The notes beneath the pieces are model-generated. The model was not told the DNA's origin, searched no databases, and saw nothing but the letters and a program-made list of their open reading frames with translations. DNA of 63,515 bases, counting the filler, from Collodictyon triciliatum (taxonomy: Eukaryota): assembly GCA_043381765.1 (NCBI GenBank). It is 10 parts of 10 records of this genome, joined end to end, with 100 filler letters (N's around TTAATTAATTAA, not from the genome) between each part and the next. Parts side by side here need not be neighbours in the genome. Positions count along the whole stretch, not along the records: positions 23,162 to 30,798 come from JBHJMP010003817.1; 9 more parts are not named here. One strand, given 5' to 3'. Positions within the stretch are counted from its first letter, which is position 1. Every line of letters begins with the position of its first letter. Made by a program: the position numbers and the translations under genes. Positions 8,629 through 60,304 of the stretch are shown piece after piece.

Positions 8629-10086
8629 TTATTCGTCCTCGTTGTTTTCATTGTTCTCTTCTTCCTTTTCCTCCTCTCCTATACCAGCCACAGCATATGA
8701 CAATTTCTTCTGCGCCCGAGTCACTCTCATTTCGGCATCTTTTGTTTCAGAGTTTTCTGAACCATAAACAAGTTCATACACAACTCGAGCCTTTTCAAAC
8801 ATTTCTAGAGATTCTTGCAGCCTTTCACATTTTTCAAACAGGTTTCCGATGTTGAAAAAAACATCCGCGACACTAGAATGCCATTCCCCAAATATTTGTA
8901 GTCGAATCTCAAGTGACTTTTGGTAGACTTCCAATGCCTTTTCAAGCCTACAAAATGTTTATTTTATCGAAGATAAAATAAACAAAACAAAACAAAACAA
9001 AACAAAACAAAACAAAACAAAACAAAACAAAACAAAACAAAACAAAACAAAACAAAACAAAACAAAACAAAACAAAACAAAACAAAAAAGAAATAGAAAA
9101 GAAAGAGCAATCACAACTTACTCTCCAAGGTTATCATATACTCCACCAAGGTTATTATATATATCTGCAACACTGGTGTGATAATCTCCAGACAATTTCA
9201 ACCGAATTTCAAGACAGTTAAAATAATATTCTGCAGCATCTTCGAATCTATGAGATAATTTGAGTTCTTTAAGTCTCAAGAAACATGAGAATATGAACAA
9301 CAAACCCTCCGATCGTTCTGCAAATAATCCCCATGTTATGATATACAGTTGCAACACTCGGGTGAATTTTTCCAAACGCTTTCAATATGATGTCTAGTTC
9401 CTTCTTGTAGTATTCTAGTGCTTTTTCGTACCTATCAGACCACGATATTATCAATTTGGAAAAATCTAGAAAAAATGCTCCGATGCTCAATTCAAAAATA
9501 AAGTCAAAAAAAAATGTACTCTCCAATTTTTCCGTAAAAAGTTCCTATGTTTCCATAAGATACCGCAACATTAGGATGCCATTCTCCGAACAATCTCATC
9601 GATATATCAAGATCTTTCTGGTAATATTCCAGTGCCTTATCATAACTTTCCAAAATTTACGTTAGCAGTTGAAAACTATGAATCGAATAACAGAAAAAAG
9701 AATTACCGAAGGAAACCTCAACAGAAATATAAATACCTCTCAAGGTTAAGGTATGTGCTTCCAAGATTGAGGAACGCTGTCGCTACATTCGGATGGATTT
9801 CTCCAAACACTTTCAATTTTATTTCAAGAGATTTATTGTAGTACTCTTCAGCTTTTTCATACCTATAATAATCCAATATCTTATTTTTTCTAAAAGAATT
9901 AACATTTACAATAAGAATATTTACTGCCCAAGGTGTTGATACACTATTCCGATATTATTATACGAGTCAGCAACTTCAGGGCGATTCTCTCCAAATATCC
10001 CCACTGCGATTTTAAGGTCTTTGTGATAATATTCTAACGCCATTTCATGACTAATAAAGGGTCAGATTAAACCCATGGAGAAGTAA

Positions 10087-10117
<31 letters not shown>

Positions 10118-13100
10118 CATACATACATACATACATACATACATACATACATACATACATACATACATACATACATACATACATACATACAAATGAACTT
10201 ACTTTCCAATACTATCATATATTACTCCAATATTATTATACGATACTGAGATGCTTGGATGAAATTCTCCAAACAGTTTCAGCTTAATTTCAAGTGATTT
10301 TTGATAGAACTCTAATGCTTTTTCATACCTTGTGATATTTTTCCTTATAGATTGTCTGGAGAAAGGATTAAATAATAATAGTCACATTTGTATAGGTAAC
10401 AAATAGGGATACTTTCCGATCTGATTGTAAACCATTCCCAAGAAATTCAAGTCTATACTATTTGAACCTAATGTAGATGGGTTATTATTTTTGAAATATA
10501 GATTGGGTTTGTTTGAAGGTTAAAAACCTTCGTCTGTTTCCACCGAGATGCGGTATTCAAGTATTGGAATTAAAAAATCGTTTTCCTGAACTTCTCGAAA
10601 ATAGCTGACAAGTTCGTATCCAGCAGGGTTCAGTTCCTATTTTAATTACATATTAGAAATATATAGTTACAATTATGCTAGATTCGTAGAAAAAGACCTT
10701 TGCCATTTCGCTGTACACAATTTTATGGTCGAATCCGTTTGTATTTAGTTCCCTCCAGCATTCAAAAAACTCGAAACGATATGCTCCTTTCAGCATATTT
10801 TCTACAACCTTGAGAATAGGTTGTATTTTACTCATAAAAATATCAGGCAAATAATACAATTATATTAAAACCTTTTCTCTTCTTACGAACTCAACCAAAT
10901 TTACATATCCCTCTGATATCCTTAAATTGTGGCAAATTTCAGCAATCAAAAGAACATCATCGATGTCATAACCATATTCTGTCAACAGCCATAGACCATA
11001 TTCATGTGCTTCTGACTTTTTATAATACTCGCCATCAAAGTATCTTTCTTTTATGGATAGTGTCAAAAGTTCATGGGAGAACGTGTATCTAAACGAAAAA
11101 TTATCAGGTGCTGATTCAACAACAAATATATAAAACCATTCCTGTCATTGAATCTAATAAAGGAAAAAACTTGAAGCGAATGGACGATAGTTATTATGAT
11201 CTTTGTTATAACCTTCTGTTCCTTACAAACAGCGACTCTAGCAAAACAAAAAGGAAAGATTTCCTAGGAATAAAGAAATATCAGAAAAATGAACAACTAT
11301 TGGGCTAAAATAGTAATATTTAATTACCATGTCGCATGATTCATTTTGATATTGATTTGCTTAAGTCGATATTCCATATATTTATCCAACTCGTTTTCAT
11401 CTAGCCCAATACGTGACACATAAAGAGCACTAATAGATATGCGAACTAGCTCCAATCCTAAAAAATTTAATACGTGAATAATTTAATCCTATTATATATA
11501 AGTGACGAAAATAATATTTTTACCCACCATATTTATTTTCCCACCGACTTATCACAAGATCAAATAAGTCGACAACACCATTCGTTTGTAGCATCGCATG
11601 AAGTTCTCTATCCAATTTTTCATAAACCCCAAACACACGAAGTTCGTCCAAGACAACGTGCAAATATAGTGGATGTCCTGAATTCAATATTTATGTGAAG
11701 TCACTAAACTATCAAAAAATAAATCACACCTGTTACGTGCATTTACCTGTATCCTCAGAATCACTCAAAATCATTCCCATCTGCCGCTCATTCAAGGATT
11801 TGTTATATCGGTTGAAAAAAGTAGTAGTTGCCTGTCTGATTTCGACGTCATCAAGTTTGGGGATAGGGATGATATCGAGTGCAAGTGACTTGACCACCTT
11901 GTATAAAAGAAGAAAAAAAAGAGGAGCAAAAATAAACCTGAGTAATAAATAAAAATTTGGCTCATGGTATTGGAAAACATACATAGCATGACTTATGTGA
12001 ATTGATGGCCGACACAACAATAGATGTGTTCTTTGGTGTTTTTTTTGGGAGCCATTCAAGGTTATGAACGTGTTTGTATTGTTGTGAATCAACTAATTGA
12101 TCGAGAGCATCAACTACCAACACGACTTTTGTTCTCCTATTCAATACGTGTTTTTTTAAGAAAATATTCCCTAATATATAAATATTAAGAAAATAAGGTG
12201 GAAACAGACTCATTTCTAGCAGCCAGCTTTAGAATATAATCGAGCCCTTCGTTCAATAAAGCTTTCCCTGGAATAAATTCAAAAAAATACAACGAAAATG
12301 AACGATACCATTCCAAAATTTTGGACATATTCTATAGAAAGGTACATAATATTCATAGCACTATCATTTGCCAGTATACCATCTTGTGAATTAAGTTCCA
12401 GTTCAATAACTGCATTTTCAACAAGCTTACGAGCCACACGCTCTACCAAACTATGTACAAATTCAATCAAACTTCAAAAAACAAACCTATCGCTGAATCA
12501 TAACTCATAATATTATATTAACTTAACTTAACTTACTTCTCAACATAATTACTCAAATTTGAGCATCCAACAAAGTAATAGATGACAACTAGATTTGGAT
12601 CCTTTTCAGCGTTCAAATCACGTACGAGTCCACTCATAATTGTTGATTTTCCAACACCAGATTCAGCTCCAATAACAGTAATTTCAGAATTATCAACAAA
12701 TAGCTGATCCATAGCTCTTTCCTTCAAGAACGCCAGAATATGGTCTCTTCCTTCCAGTCCAATCAAGCGATGACGCATAAACTGCTCATGAGCTGCATCT
12801 TCTGGATTTCTTTTCTGTAAATTCAAATTCTTTTAATCAGTGCACTGACTAATTCCAGATAAAAATTTTATAATTGTAATACAAAAAAGAATTTCAAATA
12901 ATCTATGAAAACCTCTTCCTCTGGAAAATCCTGGCTTATTGATTCCATCAGATCTTTTATAATCATCAAAATAAGTTCCTTAGGTGTTTTGTATGATTGG
13001 ACACAAAACAATTTTTTTATCTTTTCTTTCAATCCATCTTGGCTTATTTTCTGCAGTTAAAAAATCTTCAATATGAAAAAAATTATACAAAGATTTAATA

Positions 13101-14047
13101 TTTCCAAAAATTAATTAATTAAAGAATATATTAACTAAATGATTTACATCTTTTTCATCGACTGGGCGATAAAGTGCTCGCTCAGCATCAGTTTCAGCAA
13201 CATGATTAACGGCGTGCTCTTCATCTCGAAAATAAAAAAATGCACGTCGAGCAACGGCCTTAACTTTCAGAGCGCCGTGAACAATCTGCACAATATCAAT
13301 TCATTTAACATATTATTTTTTGGATTGAGTGAAAAAAAAATCCAAAATAATTTTATGGGATGTTCAAACCTCGTAATCAGTCACGCTTAGTCCTCTTATA
13401 TCCTTGAGATAGGGAAATTTCAAATCTGTGTCTGGATGCCATTCGGAAGGGTTTTTGTGATTCGGAGACCACCCATAACGCGAGCCAAGTGTACATAGAA
13501 AATATGGACACTGTTCGATGGATTCAAGGCAGCTAATGACAACCTAGATTTACAATGATTTGGAAAAAAAAACATAACTTAATATCCTTTCTAAATATAT
13601 ATGATTTAAACCATTTTTTTTTAATAATCTATACCAGTCCAGTTTCCGATATCTCACTCGTCAATCCCCAACGCAAATCGATGAACACCAGAATAAGTCC
13701 CTTCTTCTTGGCAAAATCTTTGAGTCTATTATGGAGTGAAAACATCAGTCAGTGGAATGTATACCAAAAATCTGATGATATAAAAAAAGCATAAACACTT
13801 ACAACTTTTCTCCATATGCAAAGAATTCATCTCTTTCTCTTTGCATGTCACGGAAAGTCGACGACATGAAAATTCTCAAGACTCTTTCTTGATGTACAAT
13901 CGCCCATCTGGTTTCACCATCAGAGAATGCAGAGCCCTGAATCACATCGCCTATGATTTTTGGAGCAAATACGGGCTCGTGCGATACCTCGACCAATATC
14001 CGATCATCAACATCCTGTTGGTTATGTCGGCTCCAAGGACATCCCAT
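8629..14047 (-). CDS. NLR-like DUF4062 / NACHT-like NTPase / TPR protein (NPHP3/TEP1-like architecture), paralog A
   Basis: MGC start; RIFMSSTFRDMQRERD, IDLRWG and LGSRYGW (DUF4062); Walker A GAESGVGKST; Walker B VVLVVDALDQL; WLP; GHPLYL..VLDELRVFG; about 8-9 42-aa TPR units (GExHPxVAxxYNNIG); stop at 8629. Confidence 0.9.
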
Positions 14048-14097
14048 ATTTCACCTAAAACATTATAATTTATAAAATGCCTATGCAGTATTAAAGC

Positions 14098-23319: not shown

Positions 23320-24590
23320 TCATTCCACATGATGAGTCTTTAGAGGAGACAACGGGTCACTTTCCTTGCGTTTCTTACTGGGCGACTCTGACAAAAAGCG
23401 ACACATCGTTGTTTGTCTGGTATCAGTGGAAGTGGCGCTTGACCGTCCCCTGGCATCGGAACCATGCGTAGCCGGCAGTGGACTTTGCTTAACCAGAGTA
23501 TGGATACGCGTTTGTGGTTTTAGAAACATACGCTCCTGCTTGCTTGGACTGTCTTTGAGTGTGTGGAGTTCCAAGCTTGGATTCGACTTGTGCTGTTTGC
23601 TCTTGCTCCTTGGTTCTCGGTGCGACGGGCTGGGGCAGGATAAACAGACTATCTTTGGTGGGCGCTGGTTCTTGTGTCGTCTTCGCTTTGGAATATCCTT
23701 TTGGATAAGTAACGAAGACTGCATTGAGGCCTCCTATGTTAACCATATTCACGTCAGTCTGAATGGGTAGTTTAAAGGGGGATTTCTTTCGGGGTTTGGA
23801 GATGCGCTGCTCTTGGGTGTTGCGATGTACGGGCTTGTCCGGTGTTGGCGGTGGATGGTTTGAGTGCGATGATTCTGAAGAGAAACCGAGATTTCCTTCC
23901 ATGTCATTGTCGCTGTCGCTGTCTGCGCGTATCTGCTGTGAGTCATGTGGAATCTGTTGTTGCCTGGCCTTGGCTTCCTTGACCCCGTTGCTTCTTGTTT
24001 GCTTGGCGGGTGTATTCTTTGCGGGGATTTTACTTGTCGTTCATTATTCTCGGCTGGCGGACGCTCTTTAAGGATGCGCTTTGGACACTTTTTGCCCATG
24101 ACCGTAAACTTTGCAGGGAGCTGGTTCTTATGACAAAGAAGCTTCACCACGGCCGTGTCTGTGAGGAAGCCTTTGCCCTTTTTGATGTCCGCTTCGGTCG
24201 GTCTGAACGGCTTCAGTTCCTCACGAAGGAGTTGTGGCCACACGCCCAGCGGTAGTTGGTAGAGTATCACCAAGGTCTCTGTTGGTTTACTTCTGCTGAA
24301 GCTGCTCGTAATATCAATCAAACTTACCTGCTTCAGCCCCACAAGCTTTCGGGCGTTTTTTGCAGTGCGGAAGGCAATCAGGCAAAGGCCTTCGCTGTCC
24401 GGTAAGCGCAATTGGATGGACTCTTCTCAAAGCTTGTTCGCTTTCAAGAAGGAGGCGAGCGCATCGGTGAGCCTGCAGGCCTTGTTCTTGTTGTAAACGA
24501 CTTGCTCGACACCGTGCAAAAATGCTGTTCGCTCAGACAGAATTGCAGGCGGCTTCCTTACACGGGTCTTCCTAGACTCACGTTAAACAC
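23320..24590 (-). mobile_element. Degenerate non-LTR retrotransposon ORF1-like relic (two RRM-like segments plus a disordered tail)
   Basis: Intronless GC-richer block: RTAFLHGV...GLCLIAFRT...VILYQLPLGVWPQLLREELKPF...TDTAVVKL. It has an in-frame TGA at 24427-24429 and frameshifts, and a second copy lies at 49468-49772. Confidence 0.55.
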
Positions 24591-25220
24591 GGGTTTTCCG
24601 CACCAGCGTTGTAATCAAAAGAACTGGCTGCAACATTTGATGCGTTCTACACGGGTTTTGGCTTGTGGCTTTCCATCAGGCCAGGGCGTATTGAAGGTTA
24701 TGTTCACCCGCATCAAATATGAAATTTAAATTCATTATCGGAATTGGTATGACGATATCTTGGATCACCAGCATTACGTCACGTGCCTCCAACGCCGAAA
24801 GAGTAGAAGAAATACTCAGCCACCCAATTTTGTGTAAAAACCTTTTTCTCCACAAATCAAGCAAAACCAAGAAAACCAAGAAAACCAAGCAAAACCAAGA
24901 AAACCAAGCAAAACCAAGCAAAACCAAGCAAAACGACTTCTTTTATTATTTAGAATAGAATAGAATAGAATAGAATAGAATAGAATAGAATAGAATAGAA
25001 TNNNNNNNNNNAATAGAATAGAATAGAATAGAATAGAATAGAATAGAATAGAATAGAATAGAATAGAATAGAATAGAGCTTCCTTCAAGGAAAAAAGTGG
25101 AGGTCTGCCTGACAAAAAAACCCAGAGAATTTCTCCATCTAAAATGAATATGGTTAAAGAAAATATAAATTAGTAAATATATATTATATTACTTACCATG
25201 TTAAGCTGATGCTTTCTGTC

Positions 25221-28200
25221 TCACTCAGCTGCTCTCTTGGTATCCTTCTCAACACCCCATCCATTCTCATAGCATTCAGTAACAATAGAAACAGCTTTTG
25301 GATATATGTGTTTTTCACCAATTTTATCTCCCCGTTTGCCCAGAATATCTTCTTTAATTTTAGCCAGTTCTTTCAAAACATTGAACGCCTCTTTTGAGCC
25401 TTGTTGAGCTAATTGCTTCAATCTATCGAAGTCCAATGATAATTTTGGAAAGGCGACATGTCTCCACTCAGCTGCTTTCTCAGTGTCATTCTCAACACCC
25501 CATCCATTCTCATAGCAATCAGCCATCATTTGAGCCTGGAACTTGGTGAATTTATTCTGCTCACAATAAACAACAAAGTCCACATCAAAAGAAGCAGCAC
25601 CGATGGAAAATAGGATGGATTTGTTGAATCGACTCAATCCTGTGACATCTCTGATTTGTATGCTTCCACCTCGCAGCTTTCTTGAGCCGATAATCTGGAC
25701 TGTCTTTGCATCTTGGACTCTGATTTTATCAATGATGTTCATCGAATCGCTTGTTCTATTGAATACTGCGATGGCCTCATCTGGCTTTTCTTTATTGACT
25801 AGGTATTTTCCTTGAATGTAGTTCACTTCTGACGTTTGTAGGCTGTGTGTTTGGTTTCCTATGGATACATCCCAAATATGTATTGTAGTATATTCCCAGA
25901 ATCCAGAAGCCAACCAGCTTTCACCATTCGGTCCTTGAACACTGCAAACACTGGTGGCAGCTCTTGCATGGCCTTCTAAAGTTTTGATTTGGTTTCCTGT
26001 GACTGCATCCCAAACACGTATAGTTTTATCATCACTTCCAGAAGCCAACCAGCTTTCACCGTTTGGTCCTTGAATACTGCAAACACTATAGACGACATTT
26101 ACATGACCTAACCTTTTGATTTGGTTTCCTGTGGCTACATCCCAAATACGTATGGTACCATCAAAACTTCCAGAAGCCAGCCACTTTTCGCCATTCGGTC
26201 CTTGAATACTGCAAACGCTATTGACATCGTTTGTATGAGCTTTTAGTTTTTTGATTTGGTTTCCTGTGGCTATATCCCAAATACGTATGGTTCCATCACG
26301 ACTTCCAGAAGCCAGCCAGCTTTCACCATTCGATCCTTGAATACTGCAAATACTATTGACCCAATTTGTACGACCCTCTAATGTTTTCACTTGTATTCCA
26401 GTGGCTACATCCCAAATACGAATTGTTCTATCAAGACTTCCTGAAGCCAGCCAATTTTCAAAATTCGGTCCTTGAATACTGCAAACACTCGTGACAACAT
26501 TTGTATGACCTTCTAATATTTTGATTAGGTTTCCAGTGGCTACATCCCAAATACGTATTGTTCCATCATGACTTCCAGAAGCCAACCAATTTTCACAATT
26601 CGGTCCTTGAATACTGCAAACACTCTTGACACCAATTGTGTTTCCTACCAATATTTTGATATGGTTTCCTGTGGATACACCCCAAATACGTATTGTATTA
26701 TCACGACTTCCAGAAGCCAACCAAATCTCGCCATTCGGTCCTTGAATACTACAAACAATCATGACGCTATGCGTATGACCCTCCAGTTCATCATGCGGAA
26801 TTCCAAATCTCACATCTTTCATATCTGCATTATCAAAAACACAATCACCAAGCATCGAATTAGTGAAGTCAACACCATTCAAGTTGGCACCAGTGAGATT
26901 TGCACCATCAATGATTGAATTACTGAGATTTGCATGTGGAATATTGATGTTTGATAAATCCATCCCACCAAACGAAACTTTCATGAAATTCAAAAGTGTG
27001 ATAGCATCAGATGCAGCCTTTGATTTGGTCTCATCAGTCTTTGACATGTAGACAATTCTGAATAATGATGCAATGATTTGCTCACAATTCCATTCATCAT
27101 CCAATTTTGCGTCATCAAGAGTTTCACAGACGAATTCCTTGACTCTTGTAAACTCGATAGGCTCTTTGTTGATTTCGATTTCTTTTGAATGCACGGACAA
27201 GTATTTGCATGAGTTCAATGTTCTGGGGTGAATCCATCCAAGTTTATCAGCGAATCTGTCTCTCATCTCAGCACCGAATGTCACTGCTTCGTTATGTAGC
27301 TTATTCTGTTTGCAGTATTGGTGCGCTTTCTCACAAGCCACCCAGCAGTCCCAGTTTTCATAGGATGACTTTTCAGCATGTCTGATAGCAGCTGTTTTGT
27401 AAAGCTGTATAAGGGATTCATATTCATTCATTAGTAGGATAATATTCTCAATCTGATGTGTGTCTTTCAGTGACATGATTGTATTTGTCTCCTTTCTGAT
27501 AGCAGCTGCCTTCTGGAAGTATTCAATGATTTGGTCCAATCTGAATACAGGCATGTTATTTATTATTGATGTATTTTTCTAATAGACTCAACTTGTACAT
27601 TTTTTATTTTATTAAATGAGCACTATACCCTTTAAGCTCAAAGTTTGTTCTGCCAACATTTTCAAGGGAAGTTGCGTAATCAGCATGCTTTTCGCCCAGT
27701 GTTCTCATACGAATATCCAGCGTTTTCGTATACGCCCCCAAAGCACCCTTATAGCTATAATCACATGAGTAAATATATTATTGTTGCTTCAATTAAATAA
27801 TAAAAATAATTGACAAAGAGATACTCTTTCAAATCATGGCTGATATCTCCAATAATCTCATAGCAGGCCACAACATTCGGATGATTTTCACCCAGGGCAA
27901 ATATGAAAATATCCAGTGATTGCTTTAGTGAAGATAAGGCCTCAGTTTTCCTATATAAAATAATGGTTTTGATTATTTAATAATTAAAATTATATTATCA
28001 AAAATATAACCCTAAGTAGAGTCCATAAAAATGAAAGTATAAAGCCACATACATCTTGCAAAAATTTAAAGAAAGGAAAAGTTATTGTATGCAAATATCT
28101 AAAAAAATAGGAAATTCCAACTTTCTACTGGCAAGATGAGCGTTTGCAATGAATTTGATTGTCCAGGCAAAAGATGCATGCTTAGCTCCCAGCGATTTTT

Positions 28201-30798
28201 CAAGGATTGATTTCGCCTTTTCGTAATTTTTAACAGACTCTTCATACCTTGGTGATTCAATCATATAAATATTTCTCAAATAAACGATATTTTTTAAAAT
28301 GAGCTTTAATAGAATTAATATGCTACTTATTCTCAGCCAGAGAGACATGGCCGTAGTTCTGGTACGATGTTGCGACAAGAGGATGCTCGTTTCCGACTTT
28401 CTTTTGGCGAATTTCCATGGCTTTAGTGTATTCAACCAGAGCTTGCTCATTCCTATCATAAGAAATTGATCGGCAAACATATATTTACAAAGTAAAAGCA
28501 GAAATAAGGAATAGAATAAAATAAATTATTAAATGATTACTTTGCTTGCTTCATATATATGTCTCCGAAGCGGTCGTACGATTGGGCTACTTGCAAGTCA
28601 TTTTCGCCAAGTTGCTTGATTCTCAAGTCCAGTGATGTCATGTATTCTTCAAACGCCTCATCAATTCTATTTTATAAAAAAAACCAGAACATTGATTTTT
28701 TGAAACACTTTAATATAATTTATTTTAAAGAGGCAAGAGAGTCTTACTTATCCTGTTGCTGGTAGATGATTCCCATCTCTTCATGAATTGTAGCAATACG
28801 CAGGAAATTATCTTCATATTTCTCAACTGAATCGAGACATCTCTTGTAGTAGACCATGGACTCTGCCCAACTGTTTTATTTTTGTAATCTTGATTTTGCA
28901 TCGTATTTTATAATCATATGTTAATTAACAATGAGGAATGATCATTTTTATTTTACTTTTGGAGGTTCTTGTATACACGACCGAGATTCAGGTAATCAGC
29001 AGCCTTTGAATCTATAAAATAATAATATTGAAGATAGTTACATAATTTATCTTCATGGTATAGATTAATCAAACACGATGAATTGTATACCTTCTGTTTG
29101 ATGCTTTACAAGACGCACATTCAGAACAGATAACAAAAACGAGTTCTCAGAAGAATCCAAGAAAAATTCAACAAGCAGGTCTCCCACATTATCCAAAGAC
29201 TGAAAAAGAATAATGAAACTTTGAAAGTTAAATCATAATTCACAATTAAATTATGTGGGTAGTAACATTAAAAAAACCTTCGATAGACTTCCATAAACAT
29301 CATTGTAGTTTGCTGTTCCGCTTGCATTGATTGCTCTCCAGCATGTAAAGAACTCGAAGCGATAGCGGCCACCGAGCATGATTCTGATAACCTATAAAAT
29401 AATTTCAAAATTAATCAGAGAAATCGTTTCATTATACTGAATAAAAATCGAATAAAAATCGAATAAAAATCGAATAAAAATCGAATAAAAATCGAATAAA
29501 AATCGAATAAAAATCGAATAAAAATCGAATAAAAATCGAATAAAAATAAAAATAAGAAATTACATGTTTTTGCTTCATGTATTCGACAAGTAAGTCAAAC
29601 GAATTGCCATTCAGAAGCTGGTAACATATCTCAGCAGCAAGCTCCTCATCCACGTCAGCAGCCTCAGAATATTGGCCAAACAGCCATTTTCCGTATTTTT
29701 CGTGGGTTTTTTCCATCTCTTTCTTTTCAGAGTAGTAGACCTTTTCGGCAGTCTCTAACAGCAGCTGGTGAGAGTAAATGTATCTATAATAAACAATAAT
29801 GAGGTTTATATCAACAATAAAATAAAACGAAAAAAACGATTTAAAATTAGGCTAACTTTCCATTATGGACGAAAAGCGACTCGATGAGAGTAAAGAAGAA
29901 GGATTTCCTAATTGAATAAATGCATAAATAAAATCTATAAAAAATAAGATATTGGTAAACCTATTCATTCTATTAAAATTCAAGAGAAAGAAAACCATTC
30001 AGCAAGCTCGAATCCTGTGCCAATCGCGTCTTTCATGTACTTATCCAAATCACCTTCACTCAGGCCGATGCGGGAAACAAAGAGAACCTTCATCGAGAGG
30101 GACACATACTCGACCTTCATTGTCTCTTTTCCATCAGACGAGGCTACTGTACAATAAAAAAAATCATTCAATAAAAGTTGCAATATAATTACTTTTTTCC
30201 TTTTTTTTTGGCGAAATATGTAATCAATACTCACCTATCCTGTCAAACTTCAGTTGCCAGCGCTGCATAATGAGCATGTAAAGCTCAATGACACCATTGG
30301 TCGAAAGCAGAGCAAACAGTTCATCATCGAGCTTCTCATTGACACCAAAGACCCTGACTTCATCCAGAATGATGCGGAGATAGAGCCAATGTCCTTTTAA
30401 AAATTCAAATAATAAATAACTAAATAAACTGTGAAAAACCTTATCAAACTAAATGCTCTTATTAAAAATGTCTCACCAGTATCTCCAAAGTCAGCCAGAA
30501 TCATTCCAACTTGCTTTTCGTTCAGGGTCTTGTCATAGCGGATGAGGAATGATTCGACACCATCCTTTATTTCGCCCTTGGTCAACTTGGCGACAGGAAT
30601 CGGCTCCAGTCCACTTTGCTTGGCAGACTTATTACAGATACATTAATTAACCTTCCACTCAAAATCGTTTTTAACCAAAATACAAACATGTCCAAAAAAT
30701 AATATTAAATGATGAATACCGTGCAAGATTCATGGGTATGAATAGTCGACACAACCACCGCAACATTAGCTGGTGTTTCCTTAGGCAACCAGGTCAGC
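25221..30798 (-). CDS. NLR-like paralog B: NACHT-like / TPR / pentapeptide / 7xWD40 / 2xSel1-like, 5' partial
   Basis: LTWLPKETP and GHWLYLRIILDEVRVFG, with the same intron positions as paralog A. The TPR exons splice in phase (GG|A at 27540) into the long open frame with AASDAITLLNFMKVSF, ANLTGANLNG, WLASGSxDxTIRIWD repeats and ADCYENGWGVENDTEKAAEW. Confidence 0.85.
25860..26790 (-). repeat. Seven tandem 135-bp (45-aa) WD40 coding repeats with high internal nucleotide identity
   Basis: CTTGAATACT recurs at 26741, 26606, 26471, 26336, 26201 and ~26069 (one-codon deletion), with a variant copy at ~25934. Confidence 0.9.
29439..29545 (+). repeat. Intronic 11-bp minisatellite (AATAAAAATCG)n
   Basis: About nine direct copies inside an intron of NLR paralog B. 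Confidence 0.9.
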
Positions 30799-30898
30799 NN
30801 NNNNNNNNNNNNNNNNNNNNNNNNNNNNNNNNNNNNNNNNNNTTAATTAATTAANNNNNNNNNNNNNNNNNNNNNNNNNNNNNNNNNNNNNNNNNNNN

Positions 30899-47114: not shown

Positions 47115-48653
47115 TTAAACTTCTAGGCCCTGACGCAGGCTACCTTGCGATAACTGCTTGTCCTTATTCTCTTGGGCATAGTAATTGTCATCGGAACACG
47201 ATGAAGCAGACCTACGCTTCTGATAGTACACCGTGCCCGCAGCTAAAAGAGAAACACCAGCCACAGCTCCAACAACCCCGCCGATTACTGTCGCCACTTC
47301 GTCATTTCCATCATCCTCGCTGTCTTTGGTGGGTGTCATCGATGGGTAAATAACTAATAATCAATTTTTTGAGTCACAAAAATTTTGTAATGAAAACTTT
47401 TTTTGACATTGAAGAAGCAGTATTCATTCTCAAAATAATTAAATAATCATACTTTCTCCAAGTTTGAAAGGGAAGATGGCCCCGTGGACTGAACTGCCAT
47501 AGTTGCATAGAGGGTCACCTACAACCACAAATGAGGATGAAACTGTAGTCACTTGGCCATACTCTATGGTTGTCCCACGATCAAGTTCTGCGCGCAGTTC
47601 GACAGGGTCATACCAAGTCGAGTTGATGAATGAAAAGACGAAAACTCGCTTTCGAATGGCTCCAAGATCACCAACAACCAAAAAACCTGGAGCATAAGAA
47701 AGGGACGAGCCCAGATTTTCAGAACCAACGTTACTTAAGGTGGTATTCACAGTCCATTCACTGTTTGACAGCGACAGAATGTAAACCACGTTGCAGTTAG
47801 AACTGCAGCCAACTGCGACAGTAGAGTTTGAAATGATTGCAAGGGAGGAGCCAATGTCGGAATCATTTACAAGTGGCAGACTGACATTATAACCAATTTC
47901 AATAAACCAGCCTGACTCGCTGTATGAGTATTTTAATGCATACACTGAGCCTTTTCCATCATTCATCAAGGGAAACCCAACCATAGCCCATGTATCACTA
48001 ATGGCCAATGAAGCACTCAATGTCTTCTGAGAATCCGTTATTTGTGATAATCGTCCACCGCGATAAGGTAAAGGAAAGAATACAACGTGACTGACTTGAT
48101 CAATTTCGTCATACTCGTACGACATAACCACATCGCCTGATATTGCCAAAAGATTGCCCAAACCTTTAAAATCAGACCCTGGCGATATGTCATCAGAATG
48201 AACCCATTGCGAGTCTTTAAGTTCGAAGATAGAAATAAAACCTGATTTGTCAAACACTTGCTTTGTTAATGGGGCTCCTACAATGATGTAGTCGTCCCTA
48301 GCAGCAACTGAGAATCCGAAGTTTGCGTTTGCTTGCAATAAAGGGGATGTTAGCTTTGTAACATACTGGAGAAAGTCACCATTCCTCGTGTAGACAAGAA
48401 CAGAGCCAGCATTGTCATAGTAAACAGAGTCTGATACGATGTCATCGTAGGGCACGCCAACAGCGAGAGTCTTACCACTGGGCGACAGAGAAACCGAGTT
48501 TCCGTACTGGGCATACCTCGTTACGAGACTTTCGTCCGGCGAGATTGCTGGCAAAGTGTTCCACTCGTCCTGAGCAGCAACAAGAGAGCAGGCGAGAAGA
48601 CCCGCGATGGATGCGAGAAGCACAGAGGCAGCGAGCTTTTGGTGCTTTTGCAT
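47115..48653 (-). CDS. FG-GAP (integrin-alpha-like) beta-propeller type I membrane protein, 2 exons
   Basis: Signal peptide; YGNSVSLS..LAVGVP, FGFSVAA..IIVGAP and further FG-GAP-like blades; one intron near 47359-47453; TM VIGGVVGAVAGVSLLAAGTVYY followed by KRR. Confidence 0.85.
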
Positions 48654-49467
48654 TATCAGGATGCGAAGAACACACTAGGCAAAATGTAGATCAGAAAATC
48701 TGTCGGGGTGCGGGCGATAGCGCGACGGGTTGATTACGCCATCAAGGATTACAACAAGATTGTATGATAATTCAGGTTGCCGTGAACGAGAGCGAGTCTT
48801 GGGGTTAGACAAAGTGTTGGTAGGATTGGCTTGGGTGAGTGAAGATATGTTGCTCTTTCCTTCTGTTTCTATTGCTGTGATTTCGTCCGCATTTAGAAAC
48901 GATGGTTTGCTGTTGGGCGAGCGCGTAGAGCGCAGGTATATATACTCTGGAGAGCATCAAGGAATTCTTTGGATTTGCGCAGTCCCGTTGTGGCGAACTT
49001 TGGCATGTCCAGAGACCGTTCGTCGAACGCCGTCCAAATCCGTCGACGAGAATATTCCACACACGCTACGAATATTTCTCGGTGAACGGTTCTAATGCAG
49101 TATAAAATAAATAGTATATTAGATATGGTATATTATTATTCCTTTTCTGCTTATGTCGCCCAAGGTCAAGATGCGTGTTTGCTTTCTGTATTCTGGAAAG
49201 AAGGCTTTGTCAACATCCTGTGCGTATATCATAGCTGCATGGGCATACACGCTTGACATCCTTTTGTGAACGATGGAAAATAAAGAAAACTGCTGCACAC
49301 GGGTTGTGTTATTACTATGCTGGAAGAATATCAGAAAGTAAGTGCCCCTTTCGATTATTTTTTTTCGATTCCAATCATGATACAGACTCTGCTGTATCAG
49401 TAATTGTAAGGCACTTCAAAAACAGCGTGCCTATCCGTCGTCAAGAAATCTTGCGGCATCAAATAAT

Positions 49468-56220: not shown

Positions 56221-59200
56221 ATGAGATTAAACTCAAAGTCATTTGCAGCTCTGTTGCTGTTGGGTGAGTTTTAAATTGTTTTTTTTTTAATTTTATTGAC
56301 TTCAAATTACATAGAATTTTAATTAATATATCTTTAGGATTGATGCTCCACTGCCAATTGTGTCTTGTTGAAGGGCAAGATGATTCGATTCGCACATTGG
56401 CTGGTGATTGGACTATTTGGAGTGTTGCTGTTACTCCTGATGGCTCTAAAATTATCTCTGGAAGCGAAGATAAAATAATCAAAATCTGGAACCTTTCTGA
56501 TGGAACTTTGATTCAAACATTAACTGGTCATACAAATAGGGTTTACAGTGTTACAGCCACACCTGATGGCTCAAAAGTTGTTTCAGGAAGTATGGATAGT
56601 ACAATCAAAATTTGGAATCTTTCTGATGGGTCTTTGATTCGCACATTGACTGGTCATACTGGTGAGGTTCGCAGTGTAGCCGTTACTCCTGATGGTTCAA
56701 AAATTGTCTCTGGAGGTGGCGACAACACAATCAAAATTTGGAATCTTTCTGACGGAGCTTTGATTCGCACGTTGACTGGCCATATCGGTGCTGTTATAAC
56801 TGCTACTGTTAATCCTGATGGCTCAAAAATTGTTTCAGGAAGTGGTGATTATACAATCAAAATTTGGAATCTTTCTGATGGGTCTTTGATTCGTACATTT
56901 ACTGGTCATACTGGTGAGGTTCGCAGTGTAGCTGTTACTCCTGATGTCTCAAAAATTGTTTCTGGAAGTAGAGATAGGACAATTAAAATCTGGAACCTTT
57001 TTGATGGATCTTTGATTAGCACATTGACTGGTCATACTCATTATGTTGACAGTATTTCTGTTACTCCTGATGGCTCAAAAACTGTTTCTGGAAGTGCTGA
57101 TAAAACAATCAAAATCTGGAATCTTTCTGATGGAGCTTTGATTCGTACATTGAATGGTCATACTGATTGGATTCGTAGTGTTACTGTCACTCCTGATGGA
57201 ACAAAAATTGTATCTGGAAGTGGGGATTATACAGTCAAAATTTGGGGACTTTGTGTCGCTGGTCAGTTTTATGATACAGTTTCAAAGTCTTGTCAACTAT
57301 GCCCATCCGGTAGCTACAGCGCTGGAGGAACCTTATCTTGTACTTTGTGCGTTGTTGGCACATACAATCCATCTACTGGACAAACATCATGTCTTTCATG
57401 TGCAGCTGGCACATACAATCCATCTACTGGTTCCACAAGTGTTGGTGCTTGTCTTTTATGTGCAGCTGGCTCGTTTAATCCTTCAACCGGTCAAGCAACC
57501 TGTCTTTCATGTGCAGCTGGAACATACAATCCATCAACTGGTTCTACAAGTGTTGGTGCCTGTATTTTTTGCCAGGAAGGAAAGTACAACAACAAAACTG
57601 GTCAGATATCATGCCCTAATTGCGAACCAGGAACATATAGTCCTTCAAAAGGACAGACATCGTGTTTTGACTGTCCATTAGGTTTCTACAATCAAGAATC
57701 AGGAAAAACATTTTGCACACCATGCGACCCAGGGACATTTTCAAATTCGACAAAAGGGAAATCTTGTGAAAAATGTCCAGCCGGAACTTTTAATCCAAAC
57801 GTTGCGTCAACCAGCATAAGCAGTTGTCAACCGTGCCCACAAGGGAGACACTCATCAAAATCAGGCGAATCAACATGTGAACTTTGTCAACCTGGTTCGT
57901 ACAATCCAATGTCTGGTCAGACTGGGTGCACTAATTGTACTGATGGAACATATAATCCAAGATTTGGCTCAACAAGCAACAAATCATGTGCTGAGTGTCC
58001 GATAGGAACGTATGGTAATGAACAAAGAGATGAATGTGTATCATGCTCAGCTGGAACATTCAACGATAAAACTGGTTCATTCAACCAAACATCATGTGTT
58101 TCATGTCACAATGGAAGCTACAGTTCAGAAAGAAGTGCATCATGCAGTTTCTGCTTGTCGGGATTCTATCAAAAAGAAGGAATCATAAAAGACTCGCAAT
58201 CATGCTATGCTTGTCCAAAAGGCACATTCAACTCAAACTCTGGCTCATATGGAGACAAATCATGCATCGAATGCCCACAAGGTACTTGGAATGATAGATA
58301 TGGTCAGGCATCATGCACATCATGTCCAGCTGGTACATTCAACAATAAAACTGGCTCATTCGATCAATCATCATGCATTTCGTGTCCGAATGGAAGCTAC
58401 AGCTCAGAAAGAAGCTCATTATGCAGCTTATGCTCATCAGGATACTATCAAAAAGAAGGAATCGCAAAAGACTCAAAATCATGCTATGCTTGTCCAAGAG
58501 GCACATTCAACTCAAACTCTGGCTCATATGGAAACAAATCATGCATTGAATGTCCACAAGGCACATGGAATGATAAAGATGGTCAAGCATCATGCACACC
58601 ATGTCCAGCTGGTACATTCAACAATAAAACTGGCTCAATCAATCAATCATCATGCATTTCGTGTCCGAATGGAAGCTACAGCTCAGAAAGAAGCTCATCA
58701 TGCAGCTTATGCTTATCCGGGTACTACCAAAAAGAAGGAATCACAAAAGACTCAAACTCATGCTACGCTTGTCCAAAAGGCACATTCAACTCAAAATCCG
58801 GCTCATATGGAAACTCATCATGTATTGAATGTCCACAAGGTACTTGGAATGATAAAGATGGTCAAGCATCATGCACATCATGTCCAGCTGGCACATTCAA
58901 CAACAAAACTGGCTCATTCAATCAATCATCATGCATTTCGTGTCCAAATGGAAGCTACAGCTCAGAAAGAAGCTCATCATGCAGCTTATGCTCATCAGGA
59001 TACTATCAAAAAGAAGAAATTATAAAAGACTCAAAATCATGCTATGCTTGTCCAAGAGGCACATTCAACTCAAACTCCGGCTCATATGGAAACATATCGT
59101 GCATTGAGTGTCCACAAGGCACTTGGAATGATAAATATGGTAAAGCATCATGCACATCATGTCCAGCTGGTACATATAACGATAAGGCTGGCTCATTCAA

Positions 59201-59983
59201 TCAATCATCATGCATATTGTGCCTAGATGGAAGCTACAGCTTGGAAAGAAGCGCATCATGCAGCTTATGCTCATCAGGATTCTATCAAAAAGAAGACATC
59301 ACGAAAGACTCACAATCATGCTATACTTGTCCAAAAGGCTCATATAATCCAAACTCCGGCTCATATGGAAATAAATCATGTATCGAATGTCCACAAGGTA
59401 CTTGGAACGATAGAGATGGTCAAGCATCATGCATGTCGTGTCCATCTGGCACATTCAACAATAAAACAGGCTCATTCGATCAATCATCATGCATTTCATG
59501 TCCAAACGGAAGCTACAGCTCAGAAAGAAGCGCATCATGCAGCTTATGTTCGTCAGGATTCTATCAAAAAGAAGAAATCACAAAAGACTCGGAATCATGT
59601 TATACTTGTCCAAAAGGCTCATTCAACTCTAACTCCGGCTCATATGGAAACGTATCATGTATTGAATGTCCACAAGGCACTTGGAATGATAAGGATGGCC
59701 AATCATCATGCACATCATGCCCAGCAGGTACATTCAACAATAAAACAGGCTCATTCAATCAATCGCCATGTATTTCATGTCCAAACGGAAGCTACAGCTC
59801 AGAAAGAAGCGCATCATGCAGCTTATGTTCGTCAGGATTCTATCAAAAAGAAGAAATCACAAAAGACTCAAAATCATGTTATACTTGTCCAAAAGGCTCA
59901 TTCAACTCTAACTCCGGCTCATATGGAAACGTATCATGTATTGAATGTCCACAAGGCACTTGGAATGATAAGGATGGCCAATC
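56221..59983 (+). CDS. Signal peptide / 7xWD40 / long Cys-rich (GCC2/GCC3, ephrin-receptor-like) repeat protein, 3' partial
   Basis: Exon 1 (56221-56263) plus intron 56264-56337 gives MRLNSKSFAALLLLGLMLHCQLCLVEG-QDD; seven 42-aa WD40s; then CxxCPxGTY/F repeats to the contig end in one exon of over 3.6 kb. Confidence 0.9.
58040..59983 (+). repeat. 279-bp (93-aa) higher-order Cys-rich tandem repeat, about 7 copies, running off the contig end
   Basis: The Gly codon of CPQGTWND falls at 58281, 58560, 58839, 59118, 59397, 59676 and 59955. Confidence 0.95.
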
Positions 59984-60304
59984 NNNNNNNNNNNNNNNNN
60001 NNNNNNNNNNNNNNNNNNNNNNNNNNNTTAATTAATTAANNNNNNNNNNNNNNNNNNNNNNNNNNNNNNNNNNNNNNNNNNNNTCTCTCTTTTTTCTCTC
60101 TTTTTTCTCTCTTTTTTCTCTCTTTTTCTCTACTAATATTTCGATTTTTTTCGGTTTTTAATCCCACTTGTAAGAAGCTACTCAATCGCTGGCTTCCTCG
60201 TTTTATTTTGAGTATATATATGTATTTATAAATCATTCTTTGGTGTGTGAGAAAGCCTAGTAGCCTCAGCTTTGCGTGTGAAAGTCATTCGTTATTTTCC
60301 TTAG

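Follow-up and report, generated by a model that had tools for sequence, protein, structure and literature searches.

A probable STAND-type receptor gene with a composite four-repeat sensor in Collodictyon triciliatum and its relatives in Diphylleia rotans

How did a single eukaryotic gene come to encode four kinds of repeat, tetratricopeptide (TPR), pentapeptide, WD40 and Sel1-like, in one protein? The gene in question, gene B, lies on the minus strand of a 63,515-nucleotide stretch of DNA from Collodictyon triciliatum (GenBank assembly GCA_043381765.1), the whole of which is referred to as the window, and runs from short TPR exons into one 2.3-kb exon. A second gene of the window, paralog A, terminates after its TPRs, as an initial annotation had noted and as its exon open reading frames (ORFs) and Pfam matches agree. 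That annotation had taken gene B for a chimera, in which the sensor of another class of NOD-like receptor (NLR) was captured by retroposition, horizontal transfer or recombination. We conclude instead that the composite architecture is the product of old domain shuffling, has evolved as a unit and has been inherited vertically; a fresh fusion at this locus or in this lineage is not upheld. Gene B is probably one real gene, encoding a vertically inherited receptor of the STAND type (signal transduction ATPases that have numerous domains; NLR-like), one that bears a composite sensor and belongs to the DUF4062 (NIR/TeTIR NADase) family.

The gene B model comprises 16 exons, from 30797 to 25221, joined across introns of 70–172 nucleotides (nt) that carry GT..AG borders in 15 of 15 cases, and its joined frame is stop-free over 1,386 codons. 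The DNA of the window is eukaryotic and rich in AT, and its introns are short, bordered by GT-AG and 21% GC. Nine exons within 28957–30797 (30797–30720, 30627–30477, 30393–30235, 30146–29996, 29907–29857, 29783–29564, 29391–29278, 29199–29091 and 29011–28957) encode the post-Walker-B part of the NTPase, a winged-helix and a helical region, and are colinear with residues 770–1121 of P0024, a protein of Diphylleia rotans. They are followed by six KLC-type TPR exons (27629–28870), recognized by size, phase and TPR_12 matches and all entering in phase 2: one of 123 nt (28870–28748) and five of 126 nt (28666–28541, 28452–28327, 28247–28122, 27950–27825 and 27754–27629). Taken singly, five of the six match TPR_12 (E values of 1.6e-5 to 6.5e-4), and the last, with the same length and phase as the four 126-nt exons that precede it, retrieves the remaining TPR exons of genes A and B by tblastn. 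This last TPR exon is spliced GT-AG, in phase, onto the 2,320-nt exon 27540–25221 (the big exon; ORF 25221–27578, 785 open codons), with the split codon gg|a reading Gly. The 88-nt GT..AG intron between them (27541–27628) holds an in-frame ATG at 27554 and, if read through, leads to a stop after 8 codons (..ELKGYSAHLIK*). The gene model and Pfam agree with the earlier description of one frame that passes in phase from a TPR exon into a 2.3-kb exon with motif, pentapeptide repeats, seven WD40 repeats and two Sel1 repeats. The exon is unusually long beside the 15 exons ahead of it, which measure 51–220 nt each; it is not so for the window, where other long intron-free ORFs occur (56268–60032 and 47439–48674).

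In the translation of the big exon, Pfam recognizes Pentapeptide (9e-11, 41.6 bits; cutoff 20.2), WD40 (3.2e-55, seven stretches) and, marginally, Sel1 (1.3e-7, 32.4 bits; gathering cutoff 30.7, two stretches). An AlphaFold2 model built on an 8-row alignment, with a mean predicted local distance difference test score (pLDDT) of 74 and a predicted template modelling score of 0.48, places in order helices at residues 14–198, a β-helix at 206–258, a seven-bladed propeller at 272–570, a disordered spacer at 576–638 and a helical tail at 650–784. The helices form a TPR-like linker at the start of the exon (residues 14–198, nine predicted helices; 26985–27540), and the TPR-like helix pattern runs on across the junction with the last TPR exon. 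The last linker helix carries the motif AASDAITLLN (residues 188–197; 26988–27017), which by alignment and model caps the β-helix and belongs to the stretch AASDAITLLNFMKVSFGGMDLSNINIPHANLS at residues 188–219. Relative to the general form A[AS]xNAITxLN..F.G.DL (residues 188–214), Asp replaces Asn (ASDAITLLN), and pentapeptide and WD40 repeats follow. The pentapeptide-repeat β-helix is short (residues 206–258; 26805–26963) and appears in the model as regularly spaced single-residue strands.

The propeller, predicted with a pLDDT of about 85–95, corresponds to seven WD40 repeats of 45 residues, once 44, with the signature VCSIQGPNGExWLASGS (25851–26792). Tandem Repeats Finder reports the array with a period of 135, 6.7 copies and 81% matches, and the repeats share a mean pairwise amino-acid identity of 62% (range 40–78%). 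Their most variable columns are 9, 11, 30 and 32, which we take to lie on the top face of the propeller. A post-propeller spacer (residues 577–649, pLDDT 23–41; 25632–25850), conserved in sequence with D. rotans, leads to the helical tail (25221–25631, including the stop codon at 25221–25223), which contains two repeats of Sel1-like type (ECYENGWGVE..D..KAAEW). The stop comes right after ..KRAAE and truncates the second Sel1-like repeat (25221–25240, minus strand). That repeat reads GCAGCTGAGTGAGACA, one G shorter than the GCAGCTGAGTGGAGACA of the first, and the +1 frame past the stop, WRQKASA*, is similar to the D. rotans C terminus (..AEEWLQSASMRAEKE). Either the deletion of 1 nt is real or the assembly has a homopolymer error here; only about the last 7 residues are affected.

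Evidence on the age of this arrangement comes from the relatives of the big exon. Its first 250 residues, searched exhaustively with HMMER against 1.84 billion representatives, gave 14,492 matches at E ≤ 0.001, nearly all of them generic pentapeptide proteins. Among the 150 matches listed of the 14,492, query residues 2–249 are covered by the best stretch of P0024, P0025 and P0026 only; P0076 covers 148–250 and has a further, weak match at 3–110. All four are D. rotans proteins from four separate Trinity genes (EukProt EP00002), known as transcript-derived proteins alone. Each has TPR_12 ahead of the matched stretch and WD40 after it, in the order TPR_12, linker, S[AS]xAxTLLNF motif, pentapeptide and WD40 that is also the order of gene B. 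The initial annotation had suggested a search for the cassette on other genes; the four D. rotans proteins carry it in the same TPR–linker–pentapeptide–WD40(–Sel1) order.

The 2,619-residue P0024 (also listed as P0168) is colinear with the DUF4062 and P-loop exons of paralog A, with every exon of gene B and with the big exon. Local identity to gene B over its residues 770–1121 is 36–78%, and the 613 residues of gene B upstream of the big exon are 52.4% identical to its residues 770–1372, compared with only 24–31% identity to paralog A along most of that stretch. From linker to pentapeptide repeats, the big exon's first 250 residues likewise find their best match in P0024, at about 44% identity. 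P0024 is continuous across the junction, with residues 1331–1372 equivalent to the TPR exon and those from 1375 on to the big exon. At the other end, the spacer and first Sel1 repeat of gene B align with residues 2468–2612 (93 bits for the tail alignment), and the first Sel1 repeat and post-propeller tail are conserved in the C termini of P0024, P0025 and P0026. These three proteins share with gene B the 45-residue GPNGExWLAS repeats and the Sel1-like-repeat tail, both of which P0076 lacks. The signature occurs 6 times in gene B, 14 times in P0024, 5 times in P0025, twice in P0026 and once in a further protein, P0028; it is absent from P0076, 9 other proteins, all 20 loci and the other WD40 ORF of the window. 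P0024 and P0025 have about 16–20 WD-like units, against 7 in gene B, and P0024 has one Sel1-like repeat against two.

By Pfam, the N-terminal part of P0024 scores for CH (5.4e-11), DUF4062 (7.2e-11) and, just under the cutoffs, NACHT (1.4e-5) and NPHP3_N (9.6e-5). Its residues 378–461 match the solved TEP1 domain 11gz_A at 3.3e-14, and its DLRWG and SVTEYE align with the DLRWG and SVTEME of TEP1; both the RWG loop and the motif's second Glu are conserved. With R942/W943 placed at chain positions 49/50, a count along the printed alignment makes that second Glu TEP1 E1008. Paralog A (about 8632–14050, minus strand) has an MGC.. start, a DUF4062 (NIR/TeTIR) domain, a P-loop exon at 12536–12832, TPR exons and an acidic tail. 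Pfam finds DUF4062 fragments in it (3.9e-6 and 2.9e-3) and NPHP3_N/NACHT fragments as well, and in its DUF4062 exons (13367–14050, minus strand) a DLRWG loop and an SVTDYE motif were matched by eye. By alignment count the second Glu of SVTDYE corresponds to the catalytic Glu of TEP1, the first being replaced by Asp, and judged by these motifs the NADase domain of paralog A looks catalytically competent.

Homology to proteins outside this family begins at about residue 155–170 of the query, some 500 nt inside the big exon, and the motif AASDAITLLN marks the strongest homology to proteins of a NACHT class. The shared stretch, ..A[AS]xNAITxLN..SF.G.DLS.I.IP.A.LS followed by pentapeptide turns, often occurs two or three times per outside protein. 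In the metagenomic protein P0065 a NACHT domain (4.5e-16) is followed by the motif and then Pentapeptide; P0075 has NACHT and then two modules, and P0111 has Caspase-NACHT and then three. A local three-round jackhmmer search gave module domain E values of 8.1e-30 to 2.0e-31. This NACHT-pentapeptide-WD40 class (for example P0065, P0075, P0111, L011, L019 and L020) shares with gene B a homologous module of about 90 residues, a motif helix plus 2–3 pentapeptide turns, and the module is usually followed by WD40, as in gene B. The first 165–170 or so residues of the big exon are a family-specific linker outside the NACHT-shared module. No Pfam family scores above its cutoff there, and the alignment extends across it only for the four D. 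rotans proteins (P0076 weakly, over the first part) and a short fragment, P0051, which is 67% identical to part of the linker.

Occurrence of the module in prokaryotes, to which the scan was confined, was assessed with a back-translated motif pattern over a collection of 185,579 species. It returned 19 stretches, all in frame (19/19), of which 18 are true modules with pentapeptide-like sequence after the motif; the remaining one, L017, was rejected as a likely chance match without such a continuation. Seventeen of the 18 modules are in Pseudomonadota metagenome-assembled genomes (MAGs), 13 of these labelled Gammaproteobacteria and one Tatlockia sp., and one is in a Thermoplasmata MAG. A P-loop lies 377–472 residues upstream in the same ORF in 11 modules, and three of four ORFs scanned by Pfam have the layout NACHT-Pentapeptide-WD40, the fourth being Mrr_cat-NACHT and ending just after the motif. 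With P0065, P0111 and P0075, these 18 of 19 matches support the earlier view that the motif–pentapeptide–WD40 block belongs after NACHT in a different STAND class, one with bacterial members. Five paralogous ORFs of 1,032–1,359 codons (L003, L007, L008, L014 and L018) lie on one 2.3-Mb Gammaproteobacteria MAG chromosome, each with AANAITALN plus pentapeptide repeats and four with a P-loop about 450–470 residues upstream; the genome is small, and its NACHT-pentapeptide family is expanded. Other searches added little: a strict motif expression run over the collected proteins matched P0028 alone, the others requiring profile alignment; word-indexed protein searches returned generic pentapeptide-repeat proteins or close relatives of P0148; the ESM Atlas gave no usable match; and a metagenome locus scan gave one locus, a plain pentapeptide match that is not relevant.

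The two kinds of protein differ in how the module is mounted. In the NACHT-pentapeptide class the motif comes directly after NACHT, at the 377–472 residues from the P-loop given above, whereas in the gene B family NTPase and motif are separated by about 900 residues, TPR array and linker among them: gene B has six TPR exons and a linker of about 170 residues ahead of the motif, and P0024 has an NTPase that starts at about 653 and a module that starts at 1530. There are differences, too, in NTPase subtype, in WD subtype and in the N-terminal effectors (caspase and Mrr_cat in the class).

Against this background, a recent capture, in which an A-like, TPR-only paralog acquired the sensor half of a NACHT-pentapeptide-WD40 protein by retroposition, horizontal transfer or recombination, is very improbable. 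It would suit a cassette that is intron-free beside upstream exons of 51–220 nt, and a module common to prokaryotic and metagenomic NACHT-class proteins, but the same layout, linker and Sel1 tail included, is found among the four D. rotans Trinity genes, and both halves of gene B are nearest to the same protein, P0024. When 28 modules are placed in a tree, those of the window, of P0028 and of the four D. rotans proteins form one clade with 99/99 support, which means that the family arose once; no donor is identifiable. From the common order, the common nearest relative and this clade it follows that TPRs and cassette were joined before the two organisms split and have descended vertically since. 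Since the outside homology starts about 155–170 residues inside the exon, the seam does not coincide with the intron; the WD subtype of gene B is absent from the NACHT class. No poly-A remnant or other mark of retroposition was seen 3′ of the gene B stop, where an (ATTCT)n microsatellite and a gap of N10 are all that is present. The GC content at third codon positions (GC3) of the pentapeptide–WD part is 0.28, a value that would also favour a recent arrival, but the window's other WD40 ORF (56268–60032) has the same GC3 of 0.28 and a relative synonymous codon usage that correlates with that of the gene B WD part (r = 0.69); with a second WD40 ORF equally biased, codon usage was set aside as indecisive on foreign origin. 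The intron-free state of the cassette fits either homogenization of a tandem array or an old intron-free insertion. As for the ancient source of the module, it may be the NACHT-pentapeptide-WD40 class itself or a common ancestor, with transfer in either direction. A specific form of this, compatible with the vertical descent preferred here, is that the motif–pentapeptide(–WD40) block entered long ago from bacteria, with Gammaproteobacteria, including Legionellaceae-type ones that associate with protists, as candidate donors. We regard it as possible, if on balance doubtful: it would account for the intron-free cassette, and modules occur in 17 Pseudomonadota MAG stretches and one of Thermoplasmata, in up to 5 copies on one chromosome and with the NACHT-Pentapeptide-WD40 layout in 3/4 scanned ORFs. 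However, prokaryotic and metagenomic rows are interleaved in the module tree, whose backbone has 39/57 support and which resolves no donor; transfer from a eukaryote to an intracellular bacterium would give an equal picture; the pattern scan took in prokaryotes only; and the WD subtype of the family is absent from the prokaryotic loci.

Two further accounts concern the junction itself. The locus might yield two products, a TPR-only NLR with intron 27541–27628 retained and/or a pentapeptide-WD40-Sel1 protein started at ATG 27554, instead of or alongside the fusion; the retained intron would give an A-like end (..ELKGYSAHLIK*), the in-frame ATG is 14 nt ahead of the acceptor, and module-initial metagenomic proteins exist (such as P0042, with the motif at 35), which may be partial models. 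This is improbable, given that P0024 is continuous through the equivalent point, that the TPR-like helix pattern spans the junction and that the joined form is present in X1, the sole public run with part of the stretch (0.05 of words), whose kind, 'RNA?', is a guess. X1 contigs cover 3.5 kb of the stretch with 432 matches at 85–100% identity, of which 45 reach at least 99%. One connects 27751 to 27828 without the 70-nt intron, and four that end at 27542 continue with TTGAAGCTCAAAGTTT, in which 15 of 16 letters equal the spliced end of the TPR exon and the intron is unmatched. Intron-less joined copies of gene B or a near copy thus exist in the X1 library. Contig depth, a poor measure, is 18.3 in the bin 27541–27656, which spans the intron and 28 nt of exon; the flanking bins have 108.7 and 69.2. 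A misjoining of TPR exons and cassette from different genes of a repeat-rich multigene family can be set almost wholly aside. The window is built of contigs joined by ten N44-TTAATTAATTAA-N44 linkers that carry stops in all six frames, so the order and orientation of neighbouring contigs are no proof of linkage, and the family is large, as the 432 X1 contigs indicate. Gene B and its TPR/big-exon junction, however, lie in one contig, 25012–30798, with zero N; the junction region, the helical linker, is unique and not a repeat; the independent D. rotans transcriptome has the same order; and X1 contigs show the joined form. The window also has N gaps of 391 and 566.

Several observations weigh against reading gene B as an inherited, complete receptor. 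Its 5′ part breaks off at 30798, where an N linker between contigs follows (30799–30898), so that of the NTPase the post-Walker-B part alone is in the window, the P-loop and N-terminal exons lying beyond the linker; the effector domain of gene B itself, whose own exons are unseen, is inferred from P0024 and paralog A. The NTPase of P0024 falls just below Pfam cutoffs (NACHT 25.4 bits with a cutoff of 26.7, nSTAND1 24.6 with 27.1 and NPHP3_N 23.1 with 24.8). None of the public runs on record as RNA contains the locus. Differences between the X1 contigs and the window are numerous, and the junction there rests on 14–16 loose letters with one mismatch, for which reason the junction evidence comes from a near copy; the joined copies may even be intron-less DNA copies rather than transcripts. 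The GC3 of 0.28 in the pentapeptide–WD part stands against 0.48 in the upstream exons, and could reflect an old foreign origin of the cassette. Finally, a study of fungal NLRs (PMC4986451) sets highly internally conserved repeats at ≥~85% identity over ≥100 residues, a threshold below which the WD40 identity of gene B (mean 62%, maximum 78%) remains.

As we hold probable, gene B nonetheless encodes an inherited receptor; in its full-length relatives the order from N to C terminus is CH, DUF4062, NPHP3/NACHT-type NTPase, KLC-type TPRs, linker, motif-capped pentapeptide β-helix, WD40 propeller and Sel1 tail. By analogy with other STAND proteins, the C-terminal repeats may keep the NTPase off and bind ligand, with TPRs and linker serving as an arm and the pentapeptide helix as a rigid connector. 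The internally conserved WD40 blades, which vary mainly at top-face columns, would be the most likely diversifying ligand surface, and the propeller the likeliest ligand site. Ligand binding would then allow nucleotide exchange and oligomerization, which would bring the N-terminal DUF4062 domains together for NAD+ hydrolysis. A wider reading makes the motif-capped pentapeptide helix a portable connector that attaches propellers to STAND arms across classes and domains of life and has moved between protists and Legionellaceae-type intracellular bacteria, yielding a diversifying, NADase-armed innate immune repertoire in the lineage of the window and of Diphylleia. We think this rather unlikely; were it true, a deep-branching eukaryote would possess a large receptor family with a two-tier sensor, a TPR arm and a propeller variable at few positions.

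Elsewhere in the window, an intron-free ORF of at least 3.7 kb (56268–60032, plus strand) runs into a contig linker and has seven WD40 units, by eye and without the GPNGE signature, followed by at least 21 highly similar Ephrin_rec_like/TNFR-like cysteine-rich repeats. A second intron-free ORF, of 411 codons (47439–48674, minus strand), has an FG-GAP_2 match (1.4e-9) and a signal-peptide-like start. Just 3′ of gene B, 23489–24426 (minus strand) contains overlapping ORFs of 183 and 225 codons, basic and Ser/Pro-rich and with no Pfam match, which may be a degraded mobile element or non-coding.

Close among known systems are STAND proteins in which DUF4062 stands directly ahead of a NACHT-type NTPase with C-terminal repeats, an arrangement that two 2026 preprints give for TEP1, NWD1, NWD2, TTC41, NPHP3 and bacterial Avs2-type proteins and that recurs in paralog A and P0024. 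In the same preprints DUF4062 is reported as a NADase effector of STAND proteins (10.64898/2026.09.04.749371; 10.64898/2026.09.21.753143). The likeness extends to the RWG loop and catalytic-Glu motif in P0024 and paralog A and, for gene B, to TPRs of the NPHP3/KLC type. The C termini of such proteins are described as 'either WD40 or TPR-type' in one of them (10.64898/2026.09.21.753143), whereas gene B has both; set against the proteins covered there, it differs in that a single protein unites repeats of the TPR, pentapeptide, WD40 and Sel1 types, to which P0024 adds an N-terminal CH domain. Fungal NLRs of the NWD/HET-E type (Dyrka et al. 2014, PMC4986451) resemble gene B in having WD40 repeats that are unusually alike, with variation in few columns; their effector and NTPase are other than those of the gene B family. 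The literature searched yielded no description of a TPR-pentapeptide-WD40-Sel1 stack, although the supplementary tables of the NIR preprint (Table S5, EukProt hits) may include the D. rotans proteins. The usual description of NLR-like STAND proteins gives them one effector, one NTPase and a single type of repeat, whereas gene B and its Diphylleia relatives have four repeat types stably stacked behind one NTPase, and the module of about 90 residues is common to unrelated NACHT classes of prokaryotic MAGs (mostly Pseudomonadota) and protists. This offers a concrete, testable case for the origin and retention of a composite sensor, and suggests that a receptor family has expanded in a little-studied part of the eukaryotic tree. 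The gene B family belongs with the DUF4062-NACHT STAND proteins, and its four-repeat stack is a variant of them for which the searched literature gave no description, not a new kind of system.

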